From Candidatus Eiseniibacteriota bacterium (GTDB taxonomy: Bacteria; Eisenbacteria; RBG-16-71-46; JABDJR01): a stretch of DNA of 64,000 bases. Below are positions 18,640-37,447 of this stretch, piece by piece; position 1 is the stretch's first letter, and every line of letters begins with the position of its first letter. The notes below the pieces were generated by a model, which worked only from the letters and a program-made list of their open reading frames with translations, was not told the origin of the DNA and searched no databases. Made by a program: the position numbers and the translations under genes. The stretch spans positions 1,376,001 through 1,440,000 of the forward strand of contig CAWANH010000029.1 of assembly GCA_963783375.1 (NCBI GenBank), given 5' to 3'.

Positions 18640-20163
18640 TCACCCCGGCGGGGATTTCGGAGCAAACCCGGCGGGAACGAGCAACCCCTCGGCCAGTCCC
18701 TGGCGGACGAAGTCCAGCGCCGCCTCGCGATCCCCCCCGGCGCCGGAAGCGGGATCGGCGCGGTGGCGCTCGAGGGCCTCGGCCACCGATCCGGCCCCGC
18801 CCAGAAGCTCGAGGAGGCGCAGGGTGGCGGGATTGAGCTCCCCCTCCACCCCGATCGCCCCGGGGGCGAAGCGGACGGTGAGGGCGGGGTCCACCGCCCC
18901 GGGCGCGGAACGGACCTCCACGAAGCGGGCCCCCGGCGACGGCCGGACCGCCGCTCGCAGAAGCGCCCCGGAATCGGCGGTGGCCAGGTCCAGGGATGCA
19001 AAGAGCACTTCGATCGCCGCCGGTCCGATCCCGGCCAGCGTGCGAACCGGAAGCTGAATACCGAACCGGCCCCCCGGATTTCCGTCCCGGCCGGCACGGA
19101 GGAGCGCCAGGGCCTGGTGGAACTCGGTGATGCCCCAGAGATCTATGTGCTCGCGGTAGCGACGCGCGGATTCGGCGTAGGCGGCGCCCAGGGTCGGGTC
19201 CTCGAGGGCCGCATACCCCAGGGCGATCGCGTCCGGGGAGGGCGCGCGCGTGGTCAAGAGCGCCAGGTCCAGGGGAGCCCCGTCCAGCCAGCCTCGGACC
19301 CGGTCGTGGATCTGCTCGTCGGGTCCCACCGCCGCGTCGAAGCGGACCGCGGCCCATCCCCCGGGGGCCAGGGCCTCGGAGAGGACGGACACCAGCCGCC
19401 CCACGATCGCGTCCCCCCGGGGACCTCCGTGGACGTAGGTCACCGCCTCCTGGCTCTCGGGCTGGATGACGAAGGGGGGCTGGGCGATCACCACGTCGAA
19501 GCGCCGTCCCCGCACCGGCTCCAGGAGGTCCCCGGTGTCGAACTCGGCCGGCAACCGGTTGAGCGCGGCGTTGACCCGGCCCATGGCCGTGGCCCGCGGG
19601 TTCAGGTCCGTGCCCATCGCGTCCGCCCCCCGGCGGGCGGCGAAGAGGGCCAGCGCTCCCGCCCCGCACCCCAGGTCCAGGAACCGCCCCTCAATTCGCT
19701 CGGGGAGGAGGCGGGCCAGGGCCATCGTCGCCGGGCCGGCGCCCATGACCGCGTCCCGGCCGGCGGCCGGGTCGTCGCTGAACACCCACACGTCCCCGAA
19801 CGGGAGGAGTCGGAAGCGCGCGCGAAGAGCATCGCCCTCCGCGACCAGGACCCCGGCGTCGAGGAGGGCGGACACCGTCTCCGGGCCCAGCGCATCGTGA
19901 ACCGAGGCGGCCGGAGGCATCCCGTCGTAGACGAAGAGAAGCGCGAGGCGGGCGGCGGGCGTCCCGTTTCGCTCCAGGGCGCGGTGAACCAGGGGGAGCC
20001 GGAGCCGGTCGACGAGATTGGGGGCCACCCGCTCCCCCTCCCCCAGGATGTGGTCGTCGTAGCCGGCGGTGCGCAGGGCATCCCCGAAGGCGGCCAGCGC
20101 CTCCGGCGCGAGCCCGGTCAGGCACGAGATGGGGGCGGGCCCCCGTCGTTCTTCCATGAGCAT
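18640..20163 (-). CDS. HemK/MTS-like class I methyltransferase with C-terminal winged-helix-like domain
   Basis: LDLGCGAG, TDLNPRA and FDVVIAQPPF (NPPF-like); start uncertain (20163 or 20157). Confidence 0.8.
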   Translation of the reverse strand: MLMEERRGPAPISCLTGLAPEALAAFGDALRTAGYDDHILGEGERVAPNLVDRLRLPLVHRALERNGTPAARLALLFVYDGMPPAASVHDALGPETVSALLDAGVLVAEGDALRARFRLLPFGDVWVFSDDPAAGRDAVMGAGPATMALARLLPERIEGRFLDLGCGAGALALFAARRGADAMGTDLNPRATAMGRVNAALNRLPAEFDTGDLLEPVRGRRFDVVIAQPPFVIQPESQEAVTYVHGGPRGDAIVGRLVSVLSEALAPGGWAAVRFDAAVGPDEQIHDRVRGWLDGAPLDLALLTTRAPSPDAIALGYAALEDPTLGAAYAESARRYREHIDLWGITEFHQALALLRAGRDGNPGGRFGIQLPVRTLAGIGPAAIEVLFASLDLATADSGALLRAAVRPSPGARFVEVRSAPGAVDPALTVRFAPGAIGVEGELNPATLRLLELLGGAGSVAEALERHRADPASGAGGDREAALDFVRQGLAEGLLVPAGFAPKSPPG

Positions 20164-20221
20164 GGTTCCTTGGGTTTCGCGGGCATCCGGAACGGGCCGG
20201 GAGCCGGCCGCTCCTTGCCGC

Positions 20222-21559
20222 CTAGCTCGGGGGTTCCGTTTCGGCAACCAGGGCCCGGTATCGGGGATGATCATGGAGCAACACGAGGTCCGGGTCGTTC
20301 CGCATCCACTCCCGCCAGAGTTCCCCGTGAGCCACCGTCTTGGTCAGGCAATCGAGCGCCTTGTCGAACAGCCCCTGAAGCGTGTAGACGCAGGCCACGT
20401 TGTAGAGAACCTGAGGCTCATCGGGATCGATGGCCAGCGCGCGGTCGGCCCATTCCAGGGCCAGGTCCCGACGCTCCCCGATCTGGCAATAGGCGATGGC
20501 GCTGAAGTACAGGGCGCGGGTGTCCCCGGGATTCACTTCCAGGTGCTTCTGGGCCAGATCCACCGCCGACCGGTAGGCCGCGTCGGACTCCGCCTTCAGA
20601 CCCAGGCCCCGAAGTGCGCTCCCCAGGAGAGTCGGCGCCTGGTAGTCCTCGGGCCGGGCCTCGCTGGCCCGCCGAAACCAGTACACCGCCCGATCCGTCC
20701 TTCCCTGTGCGTAGTACCCCCGGGCGAAGAAGTAGTAGGCCTCGAACAGCGAAGGGTTCAACCGGATGGCGGCCCGGAACTCCAGCTCGGCGGCCGCGTG
20801 ATCGCGCCGGAGCGAGATCGCCACCCCCCGGGCCACGTGGGCTTCGGCCAGCTCCGCGTCGAGCTCCACCGCCTTCCGGCTGGCCCGGTCGGCCTCGGCT
20901 ATCACCTCTTCGCTGGAAGCCCAGAACATGCACAGATAGGAGCAGCAATCGGCCAACCCGGCGTAGGCCCCCGCATACCCGGGATCGATCTCGATCGCCC
21001 GCTCGAACTCCGCCCGGGCGACCTCGATGCTCTTCCGCCGGAACTGCCGGAAGTGCTGGCGTCCGCGCAGATAGTAATCGTAGGCATCGACCTTGGTGGT
21101 GGGGACCTTGCGGATCGCCCGCTTCTCCTCGTCGCTGATCATGACGCTGAGCGTGCGGGAGATGGTCTCGGCGATCTCCTTCTGGATCGAGAACACGTCC
21201 TTGATCTCGCGATCGAAGCGTTCCGCCCAGAGGGTGAGACCGGTCCGGGTCTCCACCAGCTCCACGGACAGCCGCAGGTGGTTCTTGGCCCGGCGGAGGC
21301 TTCCGTCCAGGACGGAGGCCACATTCAACCTGCGGCCGATCTCGACCGCGGGAACGGAGCGGTCCTTGAACGGTCGAACCGCGGAGGAGGAGGCCACCGA
21401 GAACCCGCTGATCCGCGACAACTCGATGATGATGTCCTCGGTCACACCGTCCCGGAAGTACTCGTCCTTCTTCGACCCGCTCAGATCATTGAAATACAGA
21501 ATCGCCAGCGATTTCCCGGGCCTCGCCGGCCCGGGTTCCGCCGACCAGGGCGTCTCCAT
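20222..21559 (-). CDS. TolB-N-like plus TPR-repeat protein
   Basis: SLAILYFNDLS...YFRDGVTEDII...LDGSLRR followed by multiple TPRs; SD GGAGAGG before ATG 21559. Confidence 0.8.
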   Translation of the reverse strand: METPWSAEPGPARPGKSLAILYFNDLSGSKKDEYFRDGVTEDIIIELSRISGFSVASSSAVRPFKDRSVPAVEIGRRLNVASVLDGSLRRAKNHLRLSVELVETRTGLTLWAERFDREIKDVFSIQKEIAETISRTLSVMISDEEKRAIRKVPTTKVDAYDYYLRGRQHFRQFRRKSIEVARAEFERAIEIDPGYAGAYAGLADCCSYLCMFWASSEEVIAEADRASRKAVELDAELAEAHVARGVAISLRRDHAAAELEFRAAIRLNPSLFEAYYFFARGYYAQGRTDRAVYWFRRASEARPEDYQAPTLLGSALRGLGLKAESDAAYRSAVDLAQKHLEVNPGDTRALYFSAIAYCQIGERRDLALEWADRALAIDPDEPQVLYNVACVYTLQGLFDKALDCLTKTVAHGELWREWMRNDPDLVLLHDHPRYRALVAETEPPS

Positions 21560-26838: not shown

Positions 26839-27687
26839 ATGACGCGACCCCGGCCCCGAGACCTCCTCGATCGGATCTCCCGCCTCCTCACGATCGTCGG
26901 GGCGGCGCTCCCGGGCGGAGTCCTGCTGATCGGCCTCTTCCCCACCGCCACCATCGCCCAGGGTCCGGAACCCCCTCCCGAGCACCACGCGCTCCTGGAT
27001 ACGGGCCACGTTCCGGAGACCTACGCGGGGATCCTTCTTCCCGGGCGGACCGCGCTCATGAAATCCAAGCACAGCGACCAGGTGATCGAGGTCACCGCCC
27101 GGGTGGGAGCCGCGGTGAAGAAGGACCAGCTTCTTCTTCGCCTCACCGACCGGGAGGAGTCGGTGGCCAGGGACCGGGCCGAGGCGCTTCTCACCAAGGC
27201 CAAGGCGGACTACGGACGGGTGAAGAAGCTCCACCAAGAGGGCGGAACCAGCGACGACGGCCTGGAAACCGCCGAGACCAACCTCCGGCTCGCCCAGGCG
27301 GATTTCGATCTGGCGGCGATCCGCCTCGCCGACCGGTCGATCCGCTCCCCGTTCGACGGCATCCTGGCCGAGCGCTACGTCGATCCCGGGACCTCGGTGG
27401 AGGAAGGGGATCCGCTCCTTCGCGTGTCCTCGGTGAGCCCGCTCCGGATGGAGGCGATCCTTCCCGAGTCGGCGCTCCCCGGCCTCTCCGGTCCCACCGA
27501 GGTGGAGATCACCCCGAGCTACCCGGACACCGTGATCCGGGTCTCGGTGACGCTCGGCTCCATCGTGGTGGACCCGGCCAGCGGGACCTTCCCCCTCCAG
27601 GTCGAGGTGGACAACGCCCGCCGGCTCCTGGTACCGGGGGTGAGCTGCAAGGTCGTGATCCCCGCCCGCTCCGGCGCCTCCCCGTGA
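26839..27687 (+). CDS. HlyD/RND-type periplasmic adaptor (membrane fusion protein)
   Basis: N-terminal TM; VGAAVKKDQLLLRL; coiled coil; IRSPFDG...GTSVEEGDPL; VDPASGTF; SD GGAGG. Confidence 0.85.
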   Translation: MTRPRPRDLLDRISRLLTIVGAALPGGVLLIGLFPTATIAQGPEPPPEHHALLDTGHVPETYAGILLPGRTALMKSKHSDQVIEVTARVGAAVKKDQLLLRLTDREESVARDRAEALLTKAKADYGRVKKLHQEGGTSDDGLETAETNLRLAQADFDLAAIRLADRSIRSPFDGILAERYVDPGTSVEEGDPLLRVSSVSPLRMEAILPESALPGLSGPTEVEITPSYPDTVIRVSVTLGSIVVDPASGTFPLQVEVDNARRLLVPGVSCKVVIPARSGASP

Positions 27688-29744
27688 ACCCCGGCCGCAC
27701 GTACAAGCTCCGCGACGATCTGGTCATCCGCCGGCGGGTCTTCTCCGGCGACGTGAAGTACGTGGTCAAGGACCCCCTCCGCCTCGACTACTACACCGTG
27801 GACGAGCTGAGCTACACCCTCCTCTCCCTCTGCGACGGGAAGCGGGGTCTGGCCGAGCTCAGCGCGGCGGCGGACCGGTTCTTTCCGGGGATGGGGCTGA
27901 ACGCCCTGACCCTGCTCAACTTCTACGAGACCTACCGGTCCTTCCACTTCTTCGAGGACGCCTGGGAGCGGAACGTGCTCCTGATCGAACGCCGCCGGAC
28001 CAACCGGGCCAAGACCCTGAAGCGCGCCTTCGCCAACCCCCTGGAGATCCACCTCCCGGCCTGGAACCCCGACCGGTTCTTCGGAAGGATCGTGAAGCCC
28101 CTCCGAGCGCTCTTCACCGTGAGGGCCCTCCTGGTCTACGCGGCGGTGTTCCTGGGGGCGCTCTGGATCATGCTCACCAACGCCGACCGCTTCGCCCTGG
28201 GCTTCGGGGAGCTCTGGGTCATCCAGGGAAAGGCGTTTCTGGGCATCGTCACTCTGTGGTGCATCCTCCTCTTCACCGTGGTGCTCCACGAGATGGGCCA
28301 CGGCCTGACCTGCAAGCACTTCGGGGGCGGCGTGTTCAAGATCGGGTTCCTGTTCCTCTACTTCAACCCCTGCATGTATTGCGACGTGACCGAAAGCTAT
28401 TTCTTCGAGAACAGGAACCACAAGCACGCGGTGACCCTGGCCGGCGGGATCGTGGATCTCATGACCGCCTCCATCGCCACCTTCATCTGGTACCTCACCC
28501 CCTCCGACCTCTTCGTGAACCAGGTGGCGCACCGGGTGGCGCTGTTCAACGGGGTTACCGGGATCCTGGTCAACTACAACCCGCTCATGAAATACGACGG
28601 GTACTTCCTGGTGGCCGACCAGCTCGGGATCCCCAACCTCCGCGGCGAGTCCTTCCGGTTCCTGGGGATACGCATGCGTCGTCTCTTCGGCCTCCCCCAC
28701 GAGGACGAGCTGGTGACCCCGCGGGAGCGGCGCATCTTCTGGATCTTCGGGATCGCCGCCGTGCTCTACAGCGCCTTCGTGCTCTGGTTCGTGGTGCACA
28801 TGGTGGGGGGGTTCCTGATCGCGCACCTCCGGGCCGCGGGCTACCTCATCACCGCGGCCCTGGTGCTCCTCATGACCCAGCGATACATCCGGGGACTGGG
28901 AGGCTTCATGCGCTTCTTCGCCGCCGACAAGGCCGGACACTTCCGCCGCTGGCGACTGCCCTACGGAGCGGGGGCGGCGGTGCTCCTGGCGTTCCTCTTC
29001 CTGGTCCCCCTCCCCCGTCACGTGCGGGGCGGGTTCACCTTCCGCCCCGGAACCGAGATGGTGCTCCGGGCCCGGGAAGCGGGGGTGGTGGCGCGGGTCG
29101 ACGCCGGCGAGGGGGAGACGGTGGCCGCGGGGGCGGCGCCGGTGATCGTCCGCTCCGAGGCGGTCACGCTCCGGGCCGGGCGCGCCCGCGCCGCCCTGGC
29201 CGAGGCCTCGGTGGGACGCACCGCGGCCCAGGCCGCCCACGATCCCGCCGAAGCGGCCATCCGCGAAGCGGACGCGGCGTCCGGACGCTTCCTCGCCGAC
29301 CAGATGGCCCGCCGGGAGGACCGGCTGAGCCCCACCGCTCCCTTCGCGGGGATGGTCCTCACCCCACGCCTCGACGAGAGGGTCGGTTTGGCGGTGGCGC
29401 CGGGCGACACCCTGTGCGTGCTCGGGAACCTGGGTACCCTTCGGGCCGCGGTCCTGGTGGACGAGCAGGACCTGGGGATCCTCGATGCCGGCGCCCCGGT
29501 GGAGCTTCGCGCCGAAGCCGATCCCGGCCGTCTCCTTCGGGGACGGGTGGAGGGGATCGCTCCCGAACCCTCGGGAGGCGCGGTGCGGCGGCTCTACAAG
29601 GTCACGGTGGAGGTCGAGAACCCGGACGGCCGCCTCCGCCCCGGCATGACCGGGACCGCGCGGTTCGGCGCGGGGAAGGCCACCCCCTTCCGCCACCTCA
29701 CCGGGGAGATGACCCGGCTCATCCGCATCCAGTTCTGGATCTGA
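27684..29744 (+). CDS. PqqD/RRE-like domain plus M50 site-2 zinc metalloprotease plus HlyD adaptor fusion (YydH-like)
   Basis: N-terminal YVVKDP..YY....LLSLCDGKR..EL; HEMGH (about 28287) and NYNPLMKYDGY; C-terminal APFAG and LRPGMTG. GTG start overlaps the upstream stop. Confidence 0.85.
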   Translation: MNPGRTYKLRDDLVIRRRVFSGDVKYVVKDPLRLDYYTVDELSYTLLSLCDGKRGLAELSAAADRFFPGMGLNALTLLNFYETYRSFHFFEDAWERNVLLIERRRTNRAKTLKRAFANPLEIHLPAWNPDRFFGRIVKPLRALFTVRALLVYAAVFLGALWIMLTNADRFALGFGELWVIQGKAFLGIVTLWCILLFTVVLHEMGHGLTCKHFGGGVFKIGFLFLYFNPCMYCDVTESYFFENRNHKHAVTLAGGIVDLMTASIATFIWYLTPSDLFVNQVAHRVALFNGVTGILVNYNPLMKYDGYFLVADQLGIPNLRGESFRFLGIRMRRLFGLPHEDELVTPRERRIFWIFGIAAVLYSAFVLWFVVHMVGGFLIAHLRAAGYLITAALVLLMTQRYIRGLGGFMRFFAADKAGHFRRWRLPYGAGAAVLLAFLFLVPLPRHVRGGFTFRPGTEMVLRAREAGVVARVDAGEGETVAAGAAPVIVRSEAVTLRAGRARAALAEASVGRTAAQAAHDPAEAAIREADAASGRFLADQMARREDRLSPTAPFAGMVLTPRLDERVGLAVAPGDTLCVLGNLGTLRAAVLVDEQDLGILDAGAPVELRAEADPGRLLRGRVEGIAPEPSGGAVRRLYKVTVEVENPDGRLRPGMTGTARFGAGKATPFRHLTGEMTRLIRIQFWI

Positions 29745-29790
29745 GTCCCCGGCCGCGGGGCCGGGTGGAGTGGACGATCGAGGGGAAACC

Positions 29791-31962
29791 ATGAACGTGG
29801 ACGAAACCGGGGCGACGAAGGCGGCCCGCGACCGCGAGCTGGAAGCGCTCTATGCCCAGCTCACCACCAGCGCGGCCCGTCTCATGGTGGTGCACGAAGC
29901 CGGGAACATCCTGAGCTCCACCCACGATGCCGAGGAGGTGGCCCGGGGGCTCCTGGACGTGATCGCCGAGGCGGCCTTCGCGGGGATCGGCTGCGTGGCG
30001 TCGATGGAGCGGGACGAGCTGAAGATCCTGGCCGCCCGCGGCCTCGAGGATCACGAGGTGGACGAGCTCTCCGCCGACCCCAACGAGGCCGCGATCTGGT
30101 TCGCGGTGGCCGACGGCGAGGGGCTCCGGCGGGCCGCCGATCTCGCCGCCGAGCTGGGTCTCGGAGGAGAGGCGGACGCGGGGGACGGCGCCGCCCCGAA
30201 AGACCGCGCCGCCCCGGAAGACGGTGCCGACGGGGAGGCGGACGCGGACACCGAGGCCTCGGAGGACGATGCGGACGACTGGGGGGATGACGGGACGACG
30301 GAGGTTACGGAAGACGGCGGCGACGCCGAGACGGGGGATGACGGCGCGGACGGCGACGCCTTGGAGGAAACCGCGGACGGCGGGGAAGACGACGACGCGG
30401 AGGCCCCCTCATCCGCCCCCCACTTCGACATCTACCTCCCCCTCCGGGTCGAGGATCGGAACCTGGGGGTGCTGGCCCTGGGGGCGCGGGTGGACCATGC
30501 CGCCTTCGGCGGCGACGACGAGGCCCTGGCCCGCTCGCTCTCCTCCCACCTGGCCCTGGCCCTGAACCACGCCTACCTCTTCGCCGAGCGCACCCGGCGG
30601 ATCGAGCAGTTGAACGCGCTCCTCAGGATCAGCCGGGAGCTCACCAGCACCCTGGACCTGGAGCGCGTGCTCTCGACGATTTCCCAGATGGTGGGCATGG
30701 TGGTCCCGAACCGTCGGACGGTGGTGGCGCTGGTCCCCGGAGGCAAGGTCGCCCTCCGCGGCAGCTCCGACCCGGACTTCAAGGTCAAGGAGGCCGGCCG
30801 GGATCCGTTCCTCCCCGTGCTCCGCTGGGTCCAGGGTTCGCGGCAAAGCCTCAACACCTGCCGCCAGCTCCTGGAAGACGACCCGGAAGCCGCGGGGCGG
30901 GACGTGCTGCTCCCGTGGCTCTCCGGCGCGGACGGCCCGCGCGGGCTCGCCGTCCTGCCGCTGGAAGACGACCAGGGCCCCCTGGGGCTTCTGGCCATGG
31001 AGACCGACGAGGACCGCCCGCCCCTGGATGACGACGACGAGGAGCTGGTGACCATCCTGGCCAACCAGACCACGGTGGCCATCCGAAACGCCGAGCTATA
31101 CCAGCAGGTCCCGATGATCGGCGTCCTGGAGCCGATGCTGGCCAAGGCGCGGCAGGTCAGCCGGGGGAACCACCGGAAGCTGGTGACCCGGGCCGCCGTC
31201 GCGGCGGTGCTTCTGGGGATCGGCTTCCTGGTGCCGCTTCCGAGCTGGGTGGCCGGCGACGCCGTGGTGCGCCCGGCCCGCCCGGTGGCGCTCCGGGCGG
31301 GGACCGAGGGCACGGTGGACGAGGTGCTGGTGCACGAGGGGGAGACGGTGCCGGCGGGAATGGTGGTGGCCCGGCTCCGCCGGGACGACCTGGAGGTCCG
31401 GCTCGCCGATACCCGGGCCGGCATCCGCCGGGCTGCGGCCGAAGGAGCGAGGGCCCGCGCCGAGGGGGATTTCGCCACCTACCGGGCCCGCCAGGCCGCC
31501 CTGACCGAGCTCCAGGCCACCGAGAGCTTCCTCACCGGACAGCTCGCGGCCACCGATCTCACCGCGACGGCGGCGGGGGTGATCCTCACCCCGGACGTGG
31601 AGCGCCTGCGGGGCATCCACCTGGAGCGCGGCGAGACCTTTCTCGACATGGCCGATCTCTCCACCATGGACGTGGAGGTCGGGGTTCCGGAGCAGGATCT
31701 CGGCTGGGTGGAGCCCGGGCGCGCCGCCCGGCTCAAGGTCCACGCCTTCCCCGGACGCACCTTCCGGGGAACGGTGGTCCGGATCGCCCCCAAGGCCGGT
31801 CCGGGAGGCGAGTTCCGGGTCACGGTCCGGGTCCCCAACCCGGAGGGGGCGCTTCGGCCGGGGATGACCGGACGCGCCCACCTGGCCGCGCCCGCGGAGC
31901 CGGTTCTCCGGAAGTGGCTCCGCCCCCTGGCCCGGCGGCTCCGGCTCAAGTTCTGGGTCTGA
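29791..31962 (+). CDS. Tandem-GAF domain plus HlyD adaptor fusion with Asp/Glu-rich insert
   Basis: Two GAF-like segments (LPLRVEDRNLGVLAL; LTSTLDLERVL...LANQTTVAIRNAELY), one TM, VLVHEGETV lipoyl hybrid and LRPGMTG. Confidence 0.82.
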   Translation: MNVDETGATKAARDRELEALYAQLTTSAARLMVVHEAGNILSSTHDAEEVARGLLDVIAEAAFAGIGCVASMERDELKILAARGLEDHEVDELSADPNEAAIWFAVADGEGLRRAADLAAELGLGGEADAGDGAAPKDRAAPEDGADGEADADTEASEDDADDWGDDGTTEVTEDGGDAETGDDGADGDALEETADGGEDDDAEAPSSAPHFDIYLPLRVEDRNLGVLALGARVDHAAFGGDDEALARSLSSHLALALNHAYLFAERTRRIEQLNALLRISRELTSTLDLERVLSTISQMVGMVVPNRRTVVALVPGGKVALRGSSDPDFKVKEAGRDPFLPVLRWVQGSRQSLNTCRQLLEDDPEAAGRDVLLPWLSGADGPRGLAVLPLEDDQGPLGLLAMETDEDRPPLDDDDEELVTILANQTTVAIRNAELYQQVPMIGVLEPMLAKARQVSRGNHRKLVTRAAVAAVLLGIGFLVPLPSWVAGDAVVRPARPVALRAGTEGTVDEVLVHEGETVPAGMVVARLRRDDLEVRLADTRAGIRRAAAEGARARAEGDFATYRARQAALTELQATESFLTGQLAATDLTATAAGVILTPDVERLRGIHLERGETFLDMADLSTMDVEVGVPEQDLGWVEPGRAARLKVHAFPGRTFRGTVVRIAPKAGPGGEFRVTVRVPNPEGALRPGMTGRAHLAAPAEPVLRKWLRPLARRLRLKFWV

Positions 31963-32080: not shown

Positions 32081-33242
32081 CTAGTGTCATGCGTCGGAAG
32101 TACGTTTACAGAATCTAGCAATTGAGGCAAGGATCTCATCTGCAGATTTTGTCCACACGAGGGGCTTGGGGCTCTGGTTGGTAACCTCGATGTAGAGCTT
32201 GATAGCCTGATTGAGCCGTTTGACGCTCCGATGAGTGGCTCGACGTAGCGCCTTGTCGGTCAGTGCGGCAAACCACCGCTCGACGAGGTTCATCCAGGAG
32301 GAGTAGGTCGGCGTGAAGTGGAGGTGGAAGCGCGGGTTTCGAACGAGCCACCGCTTCACCGCGGGCACCTTGTGGGTCTGGTAGTTGTCGAGGATGAGGT
32401 GAACGTCGAGGTCATCGGGGACCTCGGCGTCGATCGTTTTCAGGAAGCCGAGAAACTCTTTCGCTCGATGGTGTTTGTGAAGACTTCCAATGACTCGCCC
32501 GGACTTCACGTCCAGCGCAGCGAACAGGGTCGTGGTGCCGTGGCGAACGTAGTCGTGCGTGTGCCGTTCGCACTGCCCTGGTCGTAACGGCAGGAGAGGC
32601 TGTGTGCGGTCGAGAGCTTGGATCTGGGACTTCTCGTCCACGCACAGCACGAGCGCCCGCTCCGGTGGATCCATGTACAGCCCCACGACATCGCGTACCT
32701 TGTCGATGAACAGGGGATCATTGGAAAGCTTGAAGGTATCGGCCCGGTGAGGCTGGAGCGCAAAGGTGTGCCAGATGCGTCGCACGGTGGTGGCGCTCAT
32801 TCCCGAGACCTCCGCCATGGAGCGGGTACTCCAGTGGGTGGCTCCCCTGGGTGTCGAGTCGAGGGTTTTTGCGATGACGCGTTCAACCTCTGCATCGGAG
32901 ACCTTGCGAGGAGCTCCGGGGCGAGGCTCATCGGTGAGCCCGTCGAGTCGGCGCTCAAGAAAGTTCGAGCGCCACTTGCCGACCGTGACCCGGGTGATGT
33001 GAAGGTGCTCGGCCACCGCGGAATTGGTCCACCCCTCGTCCGCGAGAAGCACGATGCGGGCACGGGTGGCAAGTCCTTGCGCCGTCTTGGGGCGGCGTGC
33101 CCAACCCTGGAGTACCTGACGTTCTTCGGTAGAAAGCCTGAGCGACTCGAGCGTGCGTCCACGTGACATGGCAACCCTCCTTTTGGAGGAGCATGCCGCA
33201 TGGGACTCCGGATGTATAGTTATTTCTGGCGCAAGACACTAG
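32081..33242 (-). mobile_element. IS630-family insertion sequence
   Basis: Imperfect ~30-bp terminal inverted repeats: CTAGTGTCATGCGTCGGAAGTACGTTTACA versus reverse complement of the right end CTAGTGTCTTGCGCCAGAAATAACTATACA. CTAG at both ends; lower GC than the host. Confidence 0.9.
32087..33169 (-). CDS. IS630-family DDE transposase
   Basis: HTH (GLTDEPRPGAP), CVDEKSQIQAL, HDYVRHGT, ILDNYQTHK and TPTYSSWMNLVERWF. Confidence 0.95.
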   Translation of the reverse strand: MSRGRTLESLRLSTEERQVLQGWARRPKTAQGLATRARIVLLADEGWTNSAVAEHLHITRVTVGKWRSNFLERRLDGLTDEPRPGAPRKVSDAEVERVIAKTLDSTPRGATHWSTRSMAEVSGMSATTVRRIWHTFALQPHRADTFKLSNDPLFIDKVRDVVGLYMDPPERALVLCVDEKSQIQALDRTQPLLPLRPGQCERHTHDYVRHGTTTLFAALDVKSGRVIGSLHKHHRAKEFLGFLKTIDAEVPDDLDVHLILDNYQTHKVPAVKRWLVRNPRFHLHFTPTYSSWMNLVERWFAALTDKALRRATHRSVKRLNQAIKLYIEVTNQSPKPLVWTKSADEILASIARFCKRTSDA

Positions 33243-34789
33243 GAGCCCGTCCGAGTAACGATCAAGAGCGGGCTCCCTCTGGTCATGCGCCGCACGGGAT
33301 TTGTTAGCACCCGGGTGTTTTCGGGTTCGCCCGTTGATCGGGCCGCCTTGGATCGCGAGGGGAGCCGCCCCTCGGAGGCGGTTCCGCCCCCTTTTAGGCC
33401 GATCCGACCGCCTTGGCCCACTTCAGGAGGTTGTGGGCCGTGCAGATCAGGTCCCACTCCCCCCGAACCTTCGCGAAGCCCCGCAGCAGGAACTGGCGGA
33501 ACCCCCGGGCTTGCTTCATCTGTCCGAACACCGGCTCCACCGTTTGTTTCCTCAACCGGTACCGGCTCCGGTGTCCCCCCTTGCGTAGCCGCGTCCGCAT
33601 CGCCGCGGTCCGGGGCCCCGGGTTCTTCTCCTTCCCGTCGGTCGGCGACGCGCTCCCGTGCTTCTGTCGTCCCGTCGCCACGTACCCCCGGATGTGCCGC
33701 CGATCCAGTTCCTTCAGGTTCTCCTCCGAGCAGTACCCCGCGTCCGCCGACACCTCCTGCGCCTGCCGACCCGTATTCTCCTCGACTTGCGTCACCAGCG
33801 GAACCAGCTCGCCGGCATCCGACGCCGACTGCGTCACCCCCCGCGCCACGATCACCTGGCTCCCCGCATCCACCGCCGCCTGCGCGTTGTACCCCTGGAT
33901 GAACCCGTCCTTCGTCTTCAGGATCCGGCTCTCCGGATCCGTGAAGTTCCGCTGCGCCCGCGCCGGAGGTTCCCCCTTCGGCGTCTTCTGAGGGCGTCCC
34001 CGGCCCCGCTTCTCCGGCTTCTCGGCCGCCTCCACCCCCGCCTGCTCCCGCGCCTCCGCCTCCAACGCCGCCTTCGCCTCCCGGATCTTCGCCAGCCGCT
34101 TCTGCTTGTTGGCGACCCACTCCGGCAGCTCGTCACCCCGCCGGTCCGGCCCGTACTCCTCATCCTCCTCCGCGTCCACCCGCCCCGCCTCCTTCAGCCA
34201 CCGCTCGATCTCCCCCCGCAGCCGCCCCTCCTCCCCCTTCATCCGACCGTAGCTCATCGCCTTGTGCTTCGACGCGTTCGCCTTCACCTTCGTCCCGTCC
34301 AGCGACACGTGCCCCAGCTGCACCAACCCCGCTTCCCGGCACAACCGCAACACCTGCACGAACAGACCTCCCAGCCCCTCCAAATGCCGCTTCCGGAAGT
34401 CGCTGATCGTCCGAAAGTCCGGCTTCTGCAGCGCCGTCACCGCCATGAAGTCCACCCGCTCCTCGCACGCCCGCGCCAACCGCCGCGAGGAGTACACCCC
34501 CTGGCAGTACCCGTACAGCAGCAGCGCCGTCATCATCACCGGGTGGTACGGCGGATACCCCCGCGCCTCGGTGTACTCCTCCAGGATCGCGGACAGATCC
34601 AGGGTCTCCCGGACCGTATCCCGCACCAGATGCGCCAGATGGCCCGGCGGCACCAGTTCATGAACCGAGGGAGGCAGCAACCACACTTGATCGACGTCCC
34701 AGGGACGGAAGGTCTTGCTCATGACCTCCAAAAACCACACCCCCACCGCCCTGTCTAGATCAAATCCGGGGGATTACTCGGACGGGCTC
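33243..34789 (-). mobile_element. IS1182-family insertion sequence
   Basis: Perfect 16-bp TIRs GAGCCCGTCCGAGTAA (33243-33258 and 34774-34789) flanked by CTAG direct repeats (33239-33242 and 34790-34793). Confidence 0.92.
33394..34722 (-). CDS. IS1182-family transposase
   Basis: GYPPYHP, PDFRTISDFR, LDGTKVKANAS, NFTDPESR, ADAGY and RKQTVEPVFG; SD GGAGG before ATG 34722. Confidence 0.95.
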   Translation of the reverse strand: MSKTFRPWDVDQVWLLPPSVHELVPPGHLAHLVRDTVRETLDLSAILEEYTEARGYPPYHPVMMTALLLYGYCQGVYSSRRLARACEERVDFMAVTALQKPDFRTISDFRKRHLEGLGGLFVQVLRLCREAGLVQLGHVSLDGTKVKANASKHKAMSYGRMKGEEGRLRGEIERWLKEAGRVDAEEDEEYGPDRRGDELPEWVANKQKRLAKIREAKAALEAEAREQAGVEAAEKPEKRGRGRPQKTPKGEPPARAQRNFTDPESRILKTKDGFIQGYNAQAAVDAGSQVIVARGVTQSASDAGELVPLVTQVEENTGRQAQEVSADAGYCSEENLKELDRRHIRGYVATGRQKHGSASPTDGKEKNPGPRTAAMRTRLRKGGHRSRYRLRKQTVEPVFGQMKQARGFRQFLLRGFAKVRGEWDLICTAHNLLKWAKAVGSA

Positions 34790-35149
34790 CTAGGAGGCTC
34801 CCAGTTCCTGGAGCCGCCGGCGGGCCGAGGCCTCGTCCGGGCGCTGATTCAGAATCGCCTCGACGTTCACCACCTGGAGAACGGCGCAGACCCGCTGGGA
34901 ACAGCCGTAGATGGCCAGCCCTCCCTTCTCCTGCTGCACCCGGGTCAGGAGGCGGATCAGGATCCCCACCCCCGCGCTGCTCAGAAACTCCACCTTGGAC
35001 ATGTCCAGGAGCATGGAGGTGGCCTTCTCCCCCAGCCTCTCCGAGATGAAATCCCAGAACTGGGTCGCCCCCAGGGCGTCGAGCCGGCCCACGGGGTGAC
35101 AGTGAAGAACGGTGCTCAGATCCTTGTCCGTCTCGCACGTGATGCGCAT
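34790..35149 (-). CDS. STAS-domain protein (anti-sigma-factor antagonist-like)
   Basis: GRLDA...LLDMSKVEFLSSAGVGIL; its TAG stop is part of the IS target CTAG. Confidence 0.85.
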   Translation of the reverse strand: MRITCETDKDLSTVLHCHPVGRLDALGATQFWDFISERLGEKATSMLLDMSKVEFLSSAGVGILIRLLTRVQQEKGGLAIYGCSQRVCAVLQVVNVEAILNQRPDEASARRRLQELGAS

Positions 35150-35316: not shown

Positions 35317-35333
35317 TTGGAACGGACCGTGCA
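35317..35333 (+). promoter_or_regulatory. Sigma-54 (-24/-12) promoter of the repeat-peptide gene
   Basis: TTGGAACGGACCGTGCA has GG and GC separated by exactly 10 nt and resembles TGGCACG-N4-TTGCA; a GAFTGA activator is encoded next door. Confidence 0.7.
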
Positions 35334-35426: not shown

Positions 35427-36047
35427 ATGGCTACCCGCTCGTTCAAGCGACCGCAGGCCCGACCGACCACCGCCACCACCGTGAAGATAGATGTCGCCGG
35501 CGACTTCATCGACGACATTAGCGGGTTGGCGCCCGCGGAGATCGCCAAGCTGAGTCCGAAGCAGATCGTGGCGCTCGCTCCGAAGCAGATCGCCGCCCTC
35601 GCCCCCAAGCAGGTGATGGCGCTCGCTCCGAAGCAGATCGCCGCCCTGGCGCCCAAGCAGGTGGTGGCGCTGGCCCCCAAGCAGATCGTGGCCCTGGCCC
35701 CGAAGCAGATCGCCGCCCTCGCCCCCAAGCAGGTGATGGCGCTGGCCCCGAAGCAGATCGTGGCCCTGGCTCCGAAGCAGATCGCCGCCCTCGCCCCCAA
35801 GCAGGTGCTGGCGCTGGCCCCGAAGCAGATCGTGGCCCTGGCTCCGAAGCAGATCGCCGCCCTCGCCCCCAAGCAGGTGCTGGCGCTGGCCCCGAAGCAG
35901 ATCGTGGCCATGGCCCCGAAGCAGATCGCCGCCCTGGCTCCGAAGCAGATCGCCGCCCTCGCCCCCAAGCAGGTGATGGCGCTCGCTCCGAAGCAGATCG
36001 CGGCCCTGGCGCCCAAGCAGATCGCCGCCCTCGCCCCGGTCGGCTAG
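35427..36047 (+). CDS. 206-aa protein: 33-aa leader plus 21 tandem octapeptides LAPKQ(I/V)(A/V/M/L)A plus LAPVG; candidate secreted precursor
   Basis: SD GAGGAGGT at 35412-35419, ATG 35427, synonymous codon variation between repeats, own terminator. Confidence 0.85.
   Translation: MATRSFKRPQARPTTATTVKIDVAGDFIDDISGLAPAEIAKLSPKQIVALAPKQIAALAPKQVMALAPKQIAALAPKQVVALAPKQIVALAPKQIAALAPKQVMALAPKQIVALAPKQIAALAPKQVLALAPKQIVALAPKQIAALAPKQVLALAPKQIVAMAPKQIAALAPKQIAALAPKQVMALAPKQIAALAPKQIAALAPVG
35526..36029 (+). repeat. 21 x 24-bp coding tandem repeat
   Basis: CC(G/C)AAGCAG(ATC/GTG) recurs every 24 nt. Confidence 0.97.
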
Positions 36048-36063
36048 AGCGCCCAAAGCCCAC

Positions 36064-36104
36064 GAAAGAGAGGGACCCCCTTCGGGAGGTCCCTCTCTTC
36101 GTTT
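36064..36104. terminator. Intrinsic terminator, probably bidirectional, between the convergent peptide and activator genes
   Basis: Stem GAGAGGGACC...GGTCCCTCTC with a central cTTCGg loop, flanked by A-rich and T-rich stretches. Confidence 0.8.
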
Positions 36105-36118
36105 CGGGTTCATCCGTC

Positions 36119-37447
36119 TCAGTTCCATCGACCCCGTTCGAATGCTTCGGCCAGCCGGAGGAGATCCTCCTGGTAGGCTTGGGGCATCTTGGCGAACGCT
36201 TTCCGGAGAGCCAGGAACCGCTGGCCGGGGGTGCGGCCGCCCCCTCGCATGGCCCCGGTCGCCGCGGCCAGAAAACGCTCCAGCTTGGCCCGCACCCGAG
36301 GCTCCAACGCCCGCTCCCCCGCGACCTTCACCGCGGCGGCCTCCACGTTCCAGCGTTCCTGGGCCAGGGTACGGAACCCCTCCCCCTGGAAGTAATAGGT
36401 GAGCCCGCTCCGGGAGCAGACCGGGATCTGGCGCGGATCGTTCACCTCGCGCTGGCGGATCGTCAGCATGCGCTCGGCGAGGGCGATGTTGAAGTGGTAG
36501 CGGCGGAGCTGGGCCAGAACCCACCCCCCCACCTCGGCCGCCGGGGCCTCGGGGTCGCCGGCGGGGCTCTCCGGAGTCGGAGCGCCCGATCCGAGCATGG
36601 GTTCGGCGAGACGGTGCCGGGAGAAAACCGCCACCACGTGGCGATCCCGGATCTCCTCGCCCCCCCGGGCCTCGATGAGGAGCGCGCTCACGATGTTCTG
36701 AAGCTCCCGGACGTTGCCGGGAAAGGAATAGACCATGAGCCGCCGGAGCGCGTCGGCACGGACGACGGGCCGGGGACGTTTCCACTCCTGGGCGTGGCGA
36801 TCGAGGAAGTGGTCGATCAGGGGCGGAATGTCCTCGCGGTGCTCCCGAAGCGGGGGCAGGCGGATCGGAAAGACGTTCAGACGGTAGTAGAGGTCTTCGC
36901 GGAAGCGGCTCTGGCGCACTTCGCCCCGGAGGTCCCGGTTGGTGGCGGCCACCACCCGCGCTCCACTCCGGCGGGTTCCCTCGCCGCCCACCGGGGTGAA
37001 GGTGCCTTCCTGGAGGACGCGGAGCAGCTTCACCTGGGCGGAGAGCGTCATCTCGGCGATCTCGTCCAGGAACACCGTCCCTTCGCGGGCGCGCTCGAAG
37101 ACCCCGGCGTGGGCGCGGGAGGCGCCGGTGAAGGCGCCCGGCACGTGGCCGAAGAGTTCGCTCTCCAGGAGGGTCTCGGGGATGGCCCCGCAGTTCACCG
37201 CCTCGAACGGCGCGCGCCCGTCGCTTCCGTGCTCGTGGATGAGCCGGGCCACCAGTTCCTTGCCGGTTCCCGACTCCCCCTCGAGGAGGACCGGGGCCCG
37301 GGTCGTGGACACGCTCTCCAGATCGTCCAGCACGGCCATCATGGCCGCGCTCCGGCCCACGATGCGAACCCCTTTTCCCTTCCCGGCCCTTCGCCCGCCG
37401 CTCATCGGGTCCGCATCGGCGTGTTCGTATCCTCCCTCGGTGTGCAT
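36119..37447 (-). CDS. Sigma-54-dependent enhancer-binding protein lacking an N-terminal sensor domain
   Basis: GESGTGKE (Walker A), ESELFGH..GAFTGA, FLDEI, FREDLYYRLNV and PGNVREL. The AAA+ domain starts about 30 aa from the N-terminus (alternative start 37405). Confidence 0.93.
   Translation of the reverse strand: MHTEGGYEHADADPMSGGRRAGKGKGVRIVGRSAAMMAVLDDLESVSTTRAPVLLEGESGTGKELVARLIHEHGSDGRAPFEAVNCGAIPETLLESELFGHVPGAFTGASRAHAGVFERAREGTVFLDEIAEMTLSAQVKLLRVLQEGTFTPVGGEGTRRSGARVVAATNRDLRGEVRQSRFREDLYYRLNVFPIRLPPLREHREDIPPLIDHFLDRHAQEWKRPRPVVRADALRRLMVYSFPGNVRELQNIVSALLIEARGGEEIRDRHVVAVFSRHRLAEPMLGSGAPTPESPAGDPEAPAAEVGGWVLAQLRRYHFNIALAERMLTIRQREVNDPRQIPVCSRSGLTYYFQGEGFRTLAQERWNVEAAAVKVAGERALEPRVRAKLERFLAAATGAMRGGGRTPGQRFLALRKAFAKMPQAYQEDLLRLAEAFERGRWN

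Follow-up and report, generated by a model that had tools for sequence, protein, structure and literature searches.

What does a protein do that carries, in a single chain, a domain of the kind that recognises peptide leaders, an intramembrane protease and the arm of a secretion adaptor? Such a protein is encoded at 27684..29744 of a 64,000-nucleotide stretch from a Candidatus Eiseniibacteriota bacterium (GenBank assembly GCA_963783375.1, contig CAWANH010000029.1, positions 1,376,001 to 1,440,000 of the forward strand; hereafter the window, to which all coordinates refer). An earlier note on this DNA had read it as a fusion of an RRE-like winged helix, an M50 site-2 protease and an HlyD adaptor, and had named the product of a gene at 35427 as a possible substrate. 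The three-part membrane protein, with a peptide-leader-binding fold, a membrane zinc-protease fold and a secretion-adaptor arm, is real. With somewhat better than even confidence, we place this 686-residue fusion at the core, in the inner membrane, of a machine that resembles type I secretion but has no pump, and that processes and exports the product of the repeat gene at 35427. The features that define the fusion are the following.

27684..29744, forward strand: RRE - M50 site-2 protease - periplasmic adaptor (MFP) fusion, 686 residues with about seven predicted membrane helices (frame, profiles, alignment and model)
27696..27959, forward strand: RRE/PqqD-like domain, residues 5-92 (model, structural search and sequence profiles)
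28287..28301, forward strand: HEMGH zinc-binding motif, residues 202-206 (translation and homologue alignments)
28572..28601, forward strand: N-x-N-P-x4-D-G motif with the third zinc ligand, residues 297-306 (translation and homologue alignments)
29010..29690, forward strand: periplasmic adaptor domain of the fusion, residues ~443-669, lacking an RLS motif (Pfam, structural searches and motif scan)

The open frame is intact over its 686 codons and shows strong codon bias (G+C at third codon positions, GC3, 0.93). Sixteen studies share sequence words with parts of the stretch, and contigs from four runs span the fusion gene, one of these runs (X1) being possibly that of the source sample. No RNA data set is listed for the operon, which carries no information on its expression. 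The translation contains the elements on which the earlier note had relied, namely the segments LVIRRR, YVVKD and YYTV, the helix motif, HEMGH at residues 202-206 and N297-x-x-P300-x4-D305-G306. In an AlphaFold model computed from a 74-row homologue alignment (pLDDT 83, pTM 0.58), the N-terminus forms three strands (residues 14-20, 23-30 and 35-40) and then three helices (41-86), after which come about seven membrane helices packed in a bundle and, last, an adaptor with hairpin, lipoyl and barrel parts.

In structural searches, the N-terminal domain (residues 5-92) matched RREs of lasso-peptide pathways (6jx3_B, with Z 9.4 and rmsd 2.7 over 84 of 85 residues; 5v1u_A, TbiB1, Z 9.0). For the protease region the matches were RseP (7w6z_A, with Z 10.1 and rmsd 3.3 over 133 residues) and SpoIVFB (8vjl_A, Z 9.9), and for the adaptor part, residues 433-669, they were MacA/MexA (4dk1_A, with Z 15.4 and rmsd 3.8 over 230 residues); adaptor domains were the only matches listed by Foldseek for the full model. 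Since the Z-scores of the RRE and protease regions barely exceed those of unrelated rows (Z 8.5-9.5, ranks 18-50), independent checks with sequence profiles matter. TbiB1 was the top PDB match (E 0.0018) for a profile of 46 N-terminal segments, and 34 of these segments matched the Pfam PqqD model at E<=0.1, with 1.5e-10 as the best value and a weak 0.046 for the segment of the window. The Pfam M50 model matched the fusion with an E-value of 0.0027, below the family cut-off. Taken together, the structural matches and profiles bear out both the three-domain architecture and the PqqD/RRE-like N-terminus that had been proposed.

The catalytic motifs, described in the earlier note as intact, are also conserved. 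Residues H202, E203, H206, P300, D305 and G306 are invariant across 74 aligned homologues, HExxH, which is located in a membrane helix, is kept in all 202 homologues from the fetched loci, and the downstream P..DG motif is kept in 200 of the 202, a count that is partly preselected because this motif was one of the search patterns. From fold and catalytic motifs, the fusion is predicted to carry out zinc-dependent proteolysis. The loops between its approximately seven helices are richer in Lys and Arg on the RRE side which, under the positive-inside rule, would place the RRE in the cytoplasm and the adaptor domain outside.

The fusion forms part of a cassette of six genes, the remaining features of which are as follows.

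26839..27687, forward strand: stand-alone periplasmic adaptor (MFP), 282 residues from an ATG, with a Shine-Dalgarno sequence (Pfam HlyD_D23/HlyD_3; TIGR01730 above cut-off)
27217..27252, forward strand: RLS motif (RxxxLxxxxxxS) for TolC docking, residues 127-138 of the stand-alone adaptor, at the tip of its hairpin (motif scan)
29791..31962, forward strand: GAF-GAF - single membrane helix - MFP protein, 723 residues from an ATG (a GTG at 29770 is possible), with no RLS motif at its hairpin tip
34790..35149, reverse strand: STAS (anti-sigma-antagonist-like) protein, 119 residues, divergent from the repeat gene (Pfam)
35317..35333, forward strand: sigma-54 -24/-12 promoter box (GG-N10-GC), with 11 of the 13 consensus positions matched, located 93 bases ahead of the repeat gene's ATG; a score reached in 6 of 2000 shuffles
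35427..36047, forward strand: candidate substrate of 206 residues, in which an unstructured basic leader of ~33 residues precedes 21 full repeats of eight residues and one incomplete repeat (Pfam ALTTAQ_rpt)
36119..37447, reverse strand: sigma-54 enhancer-binding activator, 442 residues, with a GAFTGA loop and no N-terminal sensor domain

The genes for the stand-alone adaptor, the fusion and the GAF-GAF-adaptor protein run forward and are followed by two insertion sequences, the reverse STAS gene, the forward repeat gene and the reverse activator gene. The stand-alone adaptor has a hydrophobic, signal-like N-terminus by hydropathy, and its stop codon overlaps the start of the fusion (GTGA). 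All six genes occur together in the window and in three further loci (L001, L002 and L100), which form with it a single clade in a quick tree (SH-aLRT 100); in a fifth genome they are split over two contigs. Among 81 well-flanked loci, the stand-alone adaptor is present in 73, the GAF protein in 73 and the sigma-54 activator in 61. The STAS query from the window matches only 8 of 182 loci, and clustering places STAS genes in 35 of the 81.

The repeat protein is predicted to fold as an alpha-solenoid (pLDDT ~90 in a single-sequence model). It is absent from the protein Atlas, a homologue search with it returned nothing at E<=0.001, and its relatives were collected through synteny and the Pfam repeat model. 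Across 206 genomes of the phylum, ALTTAQ repeats occur in four, exactly those four with a close orthologue of the fusion (E<1e-199), a co-occurrence that rests on related genomes; neither is present in two other members of the same genus, with genomes 93% and 98% complete. In an alignment of the four repeat proteins, identity in the leader is limited to M1, F6, R8 and P9, an eight-residue proline period is common to all, and the repeats drift (25-58% identity). In each of the four close loci, a sigma-54 box lies 71-93 bases upstream of the repeat gene, with scores of 11, 10, 10 and 11 of 13 that were reached by 6, 83, 41 and 3 of 2000 shuffled sequences. For the remaining five genes of the cassette the scores are 6-8. 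Synteny, co-occurrence with the close orthologue and the promoter box are thus in line with the choice of the 35427 product as candidate substrate.

In the wider branch, the position of the repeat gene is occupied by tiny Lys-rich open reading frames or by short-period repeat proteins. Where the gap between protease and activator is below 3 kb, 40 of 43 loci carry small Lys-rich frames within it. A sigma-54 box of at least 10 of 13 precedes 60 of 86 such frames, against 19 of 437 ordinary genes, although these counts come mostly from related Acidobacteriota and a few frames share one box. Furthermore, small or giant neighbours of the fusion in some relatives carry LE-x-R/K-x-AP motifs, close to the recognition motif of daptides, ELExMEAP.

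The claim that substrate recognition, cleavage and a periplasmic channel reside in one chain proved overstated as regards the channel. The fusion is one of three adaptor genes, and the RLS motif, the TolC-docking motif of adaptors as defined in the accessible text of PMC3391258, lies on the separate upstream adaptor. Near the hairpin tip it is found in 105 of 147 stand-alone adaptors, in 15 of 177 fusions and in none of 123 GAF-adaptors, and in the window both the fused arm and the GAF-adaptor arm lack it. Outer-membrane contact is therefore likely to belong to the stand-alone adaptor rather than to the fusion, and the seven OEP genes found elsewhere in the genome would be candidate channels for such docking.

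The processing and export reading is built on the domain order, the catalytic motifs, the gene set, the promoter box and the lack of a second SecA, all of which can be read from the DNA; its functional steps, and with them the binding, cleavage and export of a substrate, we infer. In this scheme, the activator would turn on the repeat gene through its sigma-54 promoter and the cytoplasmic RRE would bind the conserved basic N-terminus of the repeat protein, whose leader would then be removed by the zinc site, close to where the membrane faces the cytoplasm. The product may next enter a mixed adaptor assembly composed of the fused arm, the GAF-adaptor arm and the stand-alone adaptor, the last of which would dock a TolC-family channel encoded elsewhere, with the GAF domains and STAS protein gating or tuning the process. 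Besides the RLS motif on the stand-alone adaptor, the presence of OEP genes beside the fusion in some relatives, the daptide-like motifs of neighbouring genes and the precedent of EpeP speak for this reading.

Several findings weigh against it, in addition to the narrow base of the co-occurrence and promoter counts given above. No energy source for export is encoded. The cassette in the window contains no ABC transporter, and none recurs across 80 loci except in the flanking phosphate (pst) operon of Acidobacteriota. A SecA-like gene was found beside none of 182 loci, almost all of them non-proteobacterial; the same query matched in 11 of 20 proteobacterial loci, picked from the better-scoring matches among 95 genomes. 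A second SecA is likewise absent from the window's own genome (97% complete), which has only the canonical one, and from all five relatives, each of which has one SecA. An apparent second copy on another contig (G000:C21:1-186) was rejected as an identical duplicate of the first 62 secA codons at a contig end, and is probably an assembly overlap. The locus also lacks a TolC gene. With TolC queries from the window's genome, 164 loci gave three matches, all to an adaptor part and none to an OEP gene, and an OEP query from Bdellovibrionota placed OEP genes beside the fusion in 4 of 182 loci, all Bdellovibrionota.

The substrate assignment has difficulties of its own. The repeat protein of the window lacks the LE-x-R-x-x-P motif of other branches, which leaves its recognition site to be guessed from four sequences, and the predicted solenoid fold of its repeats would be hard to export unpowered. 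ALTTAQ repeats were considered as a general substrate mark and rejected: 12 of 30 Pseudomonadota genomes with such repeats show no protease match (E<=1e-15), and the repeat itself is therefore no mark of a substrate. The protease occurs in 18 of 30 Pseudomonadota genomes with the repeats against 77 of 371 without, a comparison confounded by kinship. Foldseek matched the model of the repeat protein only weakly, to mesothelin-like solenoids (best E 5.5e-4, TM-score 0.32-0.41), and we do not read these matches as a sign of function. No match to ALTTAQ was found among the papers listed from the literature searched, which covers few subscription journals. As for energy, cleavage-coupled release, as proposed for EpeP, and folding outside the cell are candidates.

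A bolder form of the processing and export reading, which we put forward tentatively and regard as doubtful in its entirety, is that double-membraned bacteria possess an ATPase-free secretion route in which a leader-reading site-2 protease replaces the ABC transporter and three adaptors form one conduit, only the stand-alone one docking TolC. Sigma-54-induced, fast-changing repeat precursors would be cut, possibly repeat by repeat, into secreted strain-specific signal peptides that feed back through the GAF, STAS and activator proteins.

Among the rival explanations, regulated intramembrane proteolysis survives best, and we consider it unlikely. The fusion would here cut a signalling partner anchored in the membrane, the GAF-GAF-helix-adaptor protein being the most plausible one. 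The GAF domains thereby set free would control the activator, which has no sensor of its own, or the STAS switch, and the repeat protein would be an output and not the substrate. RseP substrates are typically single-pass proteins with the N-terminus inside, and hydropathy suggests the same arrangement for the GAF-adaptor. The closest solved folds are those of the regulatory proteases RseP and SpoIVFB, the sigma-54 activator has no sensor domain, and STAS proteins, SpoIIE-type phosphatases and sigma-54 activators recur near fusion loci. However, RREs bind leader peptides, and the sole studied RRE-site-2-protease fusion that was found is a leader peptidase. Proteobacterial fusions, moreover, occur with SecA and mostly without an activator (1 of 20) or STAS (0 of 20), and the partner adaptor carries the RLS motif, which suggests an outer-membrane conduit.

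That same motif bears on a second, rather improbable alternative, in which leader removal yields a repeat product that either goes free into the periplasm or stays on the membrane, the adaptor arms merely keeping the complex together. An endpoint short of the outer membrane would fit a locus with neither a TolC gene nor an ATPase and the two arms that lack RLS, but it leaves aside the retention of the motif in 105 of 147 stand-alone adaptors and the OEP genes that adjoin the fusion in some relatives. The weakest proposal is that the machine exports another cargo, for instance a large surface protein whose gene is located elsewhere (as in the Bdellovibrionota branch and the SecA-linked one), and that the repeat gene is merely co-regulated. 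It can draw on giant proteins with LE-x-R-I-[AL]-[PL] N-termini beside homologues (L008, L012, L220, L227 and L230) and on partner genes lying elsewhere in a genome (Kamneva et al., PMC4452313, in its accessible text), but is quite improbable given that no giant-protein gene adjoins the fusion in the four complete close loci (a statement on the loci, the genome not having been searched for giant proteins with such leaders) whereas the repeat gene is a neighbour of the fusion in each of these loci and its presence follows that of the orthologue over the 206 genomes.

Three further features were recorded within the cassette region.

32081..33242, reverse strand: insertion sequence with a DDE_3 transposase, presumably IS630-like, with CTAG at both ends and an identical copy on contig C13; outside the system
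33243..34789, reverse strand: second insertion sequence, with a DUF772 + DDE_Tnp_1 transposase and terminal inverted repeats, which we take to be IS1182-like; it abuts the STAS stop codon and is outside the system
36062..36104, no strand assigned: terminator-like hairpin between the convergent repeat and activator genes (by eye from the sequence)

The two insertion sequences lie in tandem (32081-34789) at a CTAG site that doubles as the stop codon of the STAS gene, which is left intact. The uninterrupted gene order is seen in L001 and L100, and among the contigs of the four runs none bridges both elements. The first GAF region of the GAF-adaptor contains a very acidic low-complexity stretch (~30130-30410) whose length varies among relatives. 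The last ~140 residues of the activator (36119-36547, reverse strand) have no Pfam match, yet are conserved in 14 of 182 loci, and its relative in L004 bears an N-terminal GAF domain, unlike the sensor-less activator of the window. At 18640-20274 (reverse strand), the window encodes a 544-residue HemK-like methyltransferase, winged-helix-like by eye in its C-terminal part, which is probably unrelated to the cassette because it has no relative in 80 related loci.

The neighbourhoods of relatives provided additional observations. In L004 (6111-8989), a precursor with repeated, daptide-like ELEEKEAP has as neighbours a peptidase of the MATCAP family and another M50-like protein of shorter length. 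Four Bdellovibrionota loci (L008:2182-9843, L010, L043 and L044) pair the fusion with OEP genes and a protein of 800-1600 residues, which in L008 has an N-terminal LEERIAP motif. L096 (5939-10541) and L098 (1250-5753) contain an RRE-M50-adaptor gene of a second type, with two conserved genes after it (one of ~370 residues without a Pfam match), and in L098 it is preceded by a 63-residue Gly/Ser/Lys-rich open reading frame with LEQRIAP. In five loci (L014, L018, L020, L048 and L055), a protein of ~150 residues resembling SET-domain methyltransferases by eye lies among the Lys-rich mini-genes between protease and activator, which hints at lysine methylation of peptides.

The fusion family is common. 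In all, 684 proteins matched the fusion out of 7995 candidates scored, many of them labelled 'putative peptide zinc metalloprotease protein', the name that close homologues also bear at JGI. A pattern search of GTDB genomes yielded at least 593 relatives among the 598 matches listed, the closest named one among them being from a Candidatus Eiseniibacteriota genome (61% identity). Among the 206 genomes of the phylum, 38 have the RRE-protease part, as do 95 of 401 Pseudomonadota genomes sampled. Yet a computational description from 2015, with neither substrate nor RRE, was all that the literature search returned for the family. The present locus offers a compact test case, in which one short candidate substrate has its own sigma-54 promoter, the catalytic residues of the protease are defined, and the three adaptors are predicted to share out the work. 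If export holds true, it would represent protein secretion with neither an ABC pump nor a SecA motor, and would provide a function for a large class of tiny Lys-rich and tandem-repeat genes often missed by annotation.

Among known systems, type I secretion with peptidase-containing ABC transporters (HlyB/HlyD/TolC type) is the working analogy, in that it couples cleavage to a leader and passes its product through an adaptor and TolC; the RLS motif on the stand-alone adaptor is a further likeness. The cassette differs from it in having no ABC transporter, a zinc site-2 protease in place of a C39 peptidase and three different adaptors. A second comparison is with EpeP/YydH, an M50 intramembrane protease thought, according to the accessible text of PMC10885120, to both cleave and export the epipeptide. 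Its model (NF058609) matches the fusion weakly (E 4e-11), with a score of 43 against a cut-off of 225, and the radical-SAM epimerase is absent from this cassette. EpeP, moreover, comes from a single-membrane organism and is not known to have an adaptor arm.

The daptide leader peptidase MpaP/DapP is closer, carrying an RRE N-terminal to an intramembrane site-2 protease with ELExMEAP as the daptide recognition motif (Ren et al., 10.1101/2023.03.08.531785, in its accessible text), so that both proteins fuse an RRE to a site-2 protease. Over residues 83-409 the fusion has the daptide model NF041824 as its best NCBIfam match (E 7e-51). Beside some of its relatives there is also a comparable LE-x-x-x-AP motif. 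In contrast, the score of 173 falls short of the 300-bit cut-off, the fusion has an extra C-terminal adaptor domain, the cassette has no daptide modifying enzymes (aminotransferase, dehydrogenase or methyltransferase genes) and no ABC transporters, and the candidate precursor has neither ELExMEAP nor a C-terminal Thr.

The nearest precedent for the whole locus is the module that Kamneva, Poudel and Ward described computationally in 2015 (PMC4452313), which, in the portion of that article available, comprises M50/HlyD, HlyD and GAF/HlyD proteins with a secondary SecA_DEAD protein, has no ABC transporter and is proposed to act in secretion, with the M50 protein as the suggested membrane pore. 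The same three adaptor-bearing proteins are encoded together here, also without an ABC transporter. The secondary SecA is absent from this locus and its genome, however, and the STAS protein, the sigma-54 activator and the sigma-54-boxed repeat gene are additions; the main text of PMC4452313 contains no match to PqqD, and its section 17 names no substrate. The accessible parts of PMC8277102, PMC8939145 and 10.64898/2026.03.19.712371 (the last with no mention of M50) do not describe the fusion. The earlier note knew of no biochemically characterised example, and the literature searched, in which few subscription journals are covered, likewise yielded no experimental study; the newness that this implied holds only in part, for the M50/HlyD fusion with two adaptor partners had been described in silico and RRE-site-2-protease fusions are known from daptides, as far as the accessible texts go. 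The fusion is conserved and uncharacterised, and its locus is a SecA-less, sigma-54-linked variant of the module described in silico.

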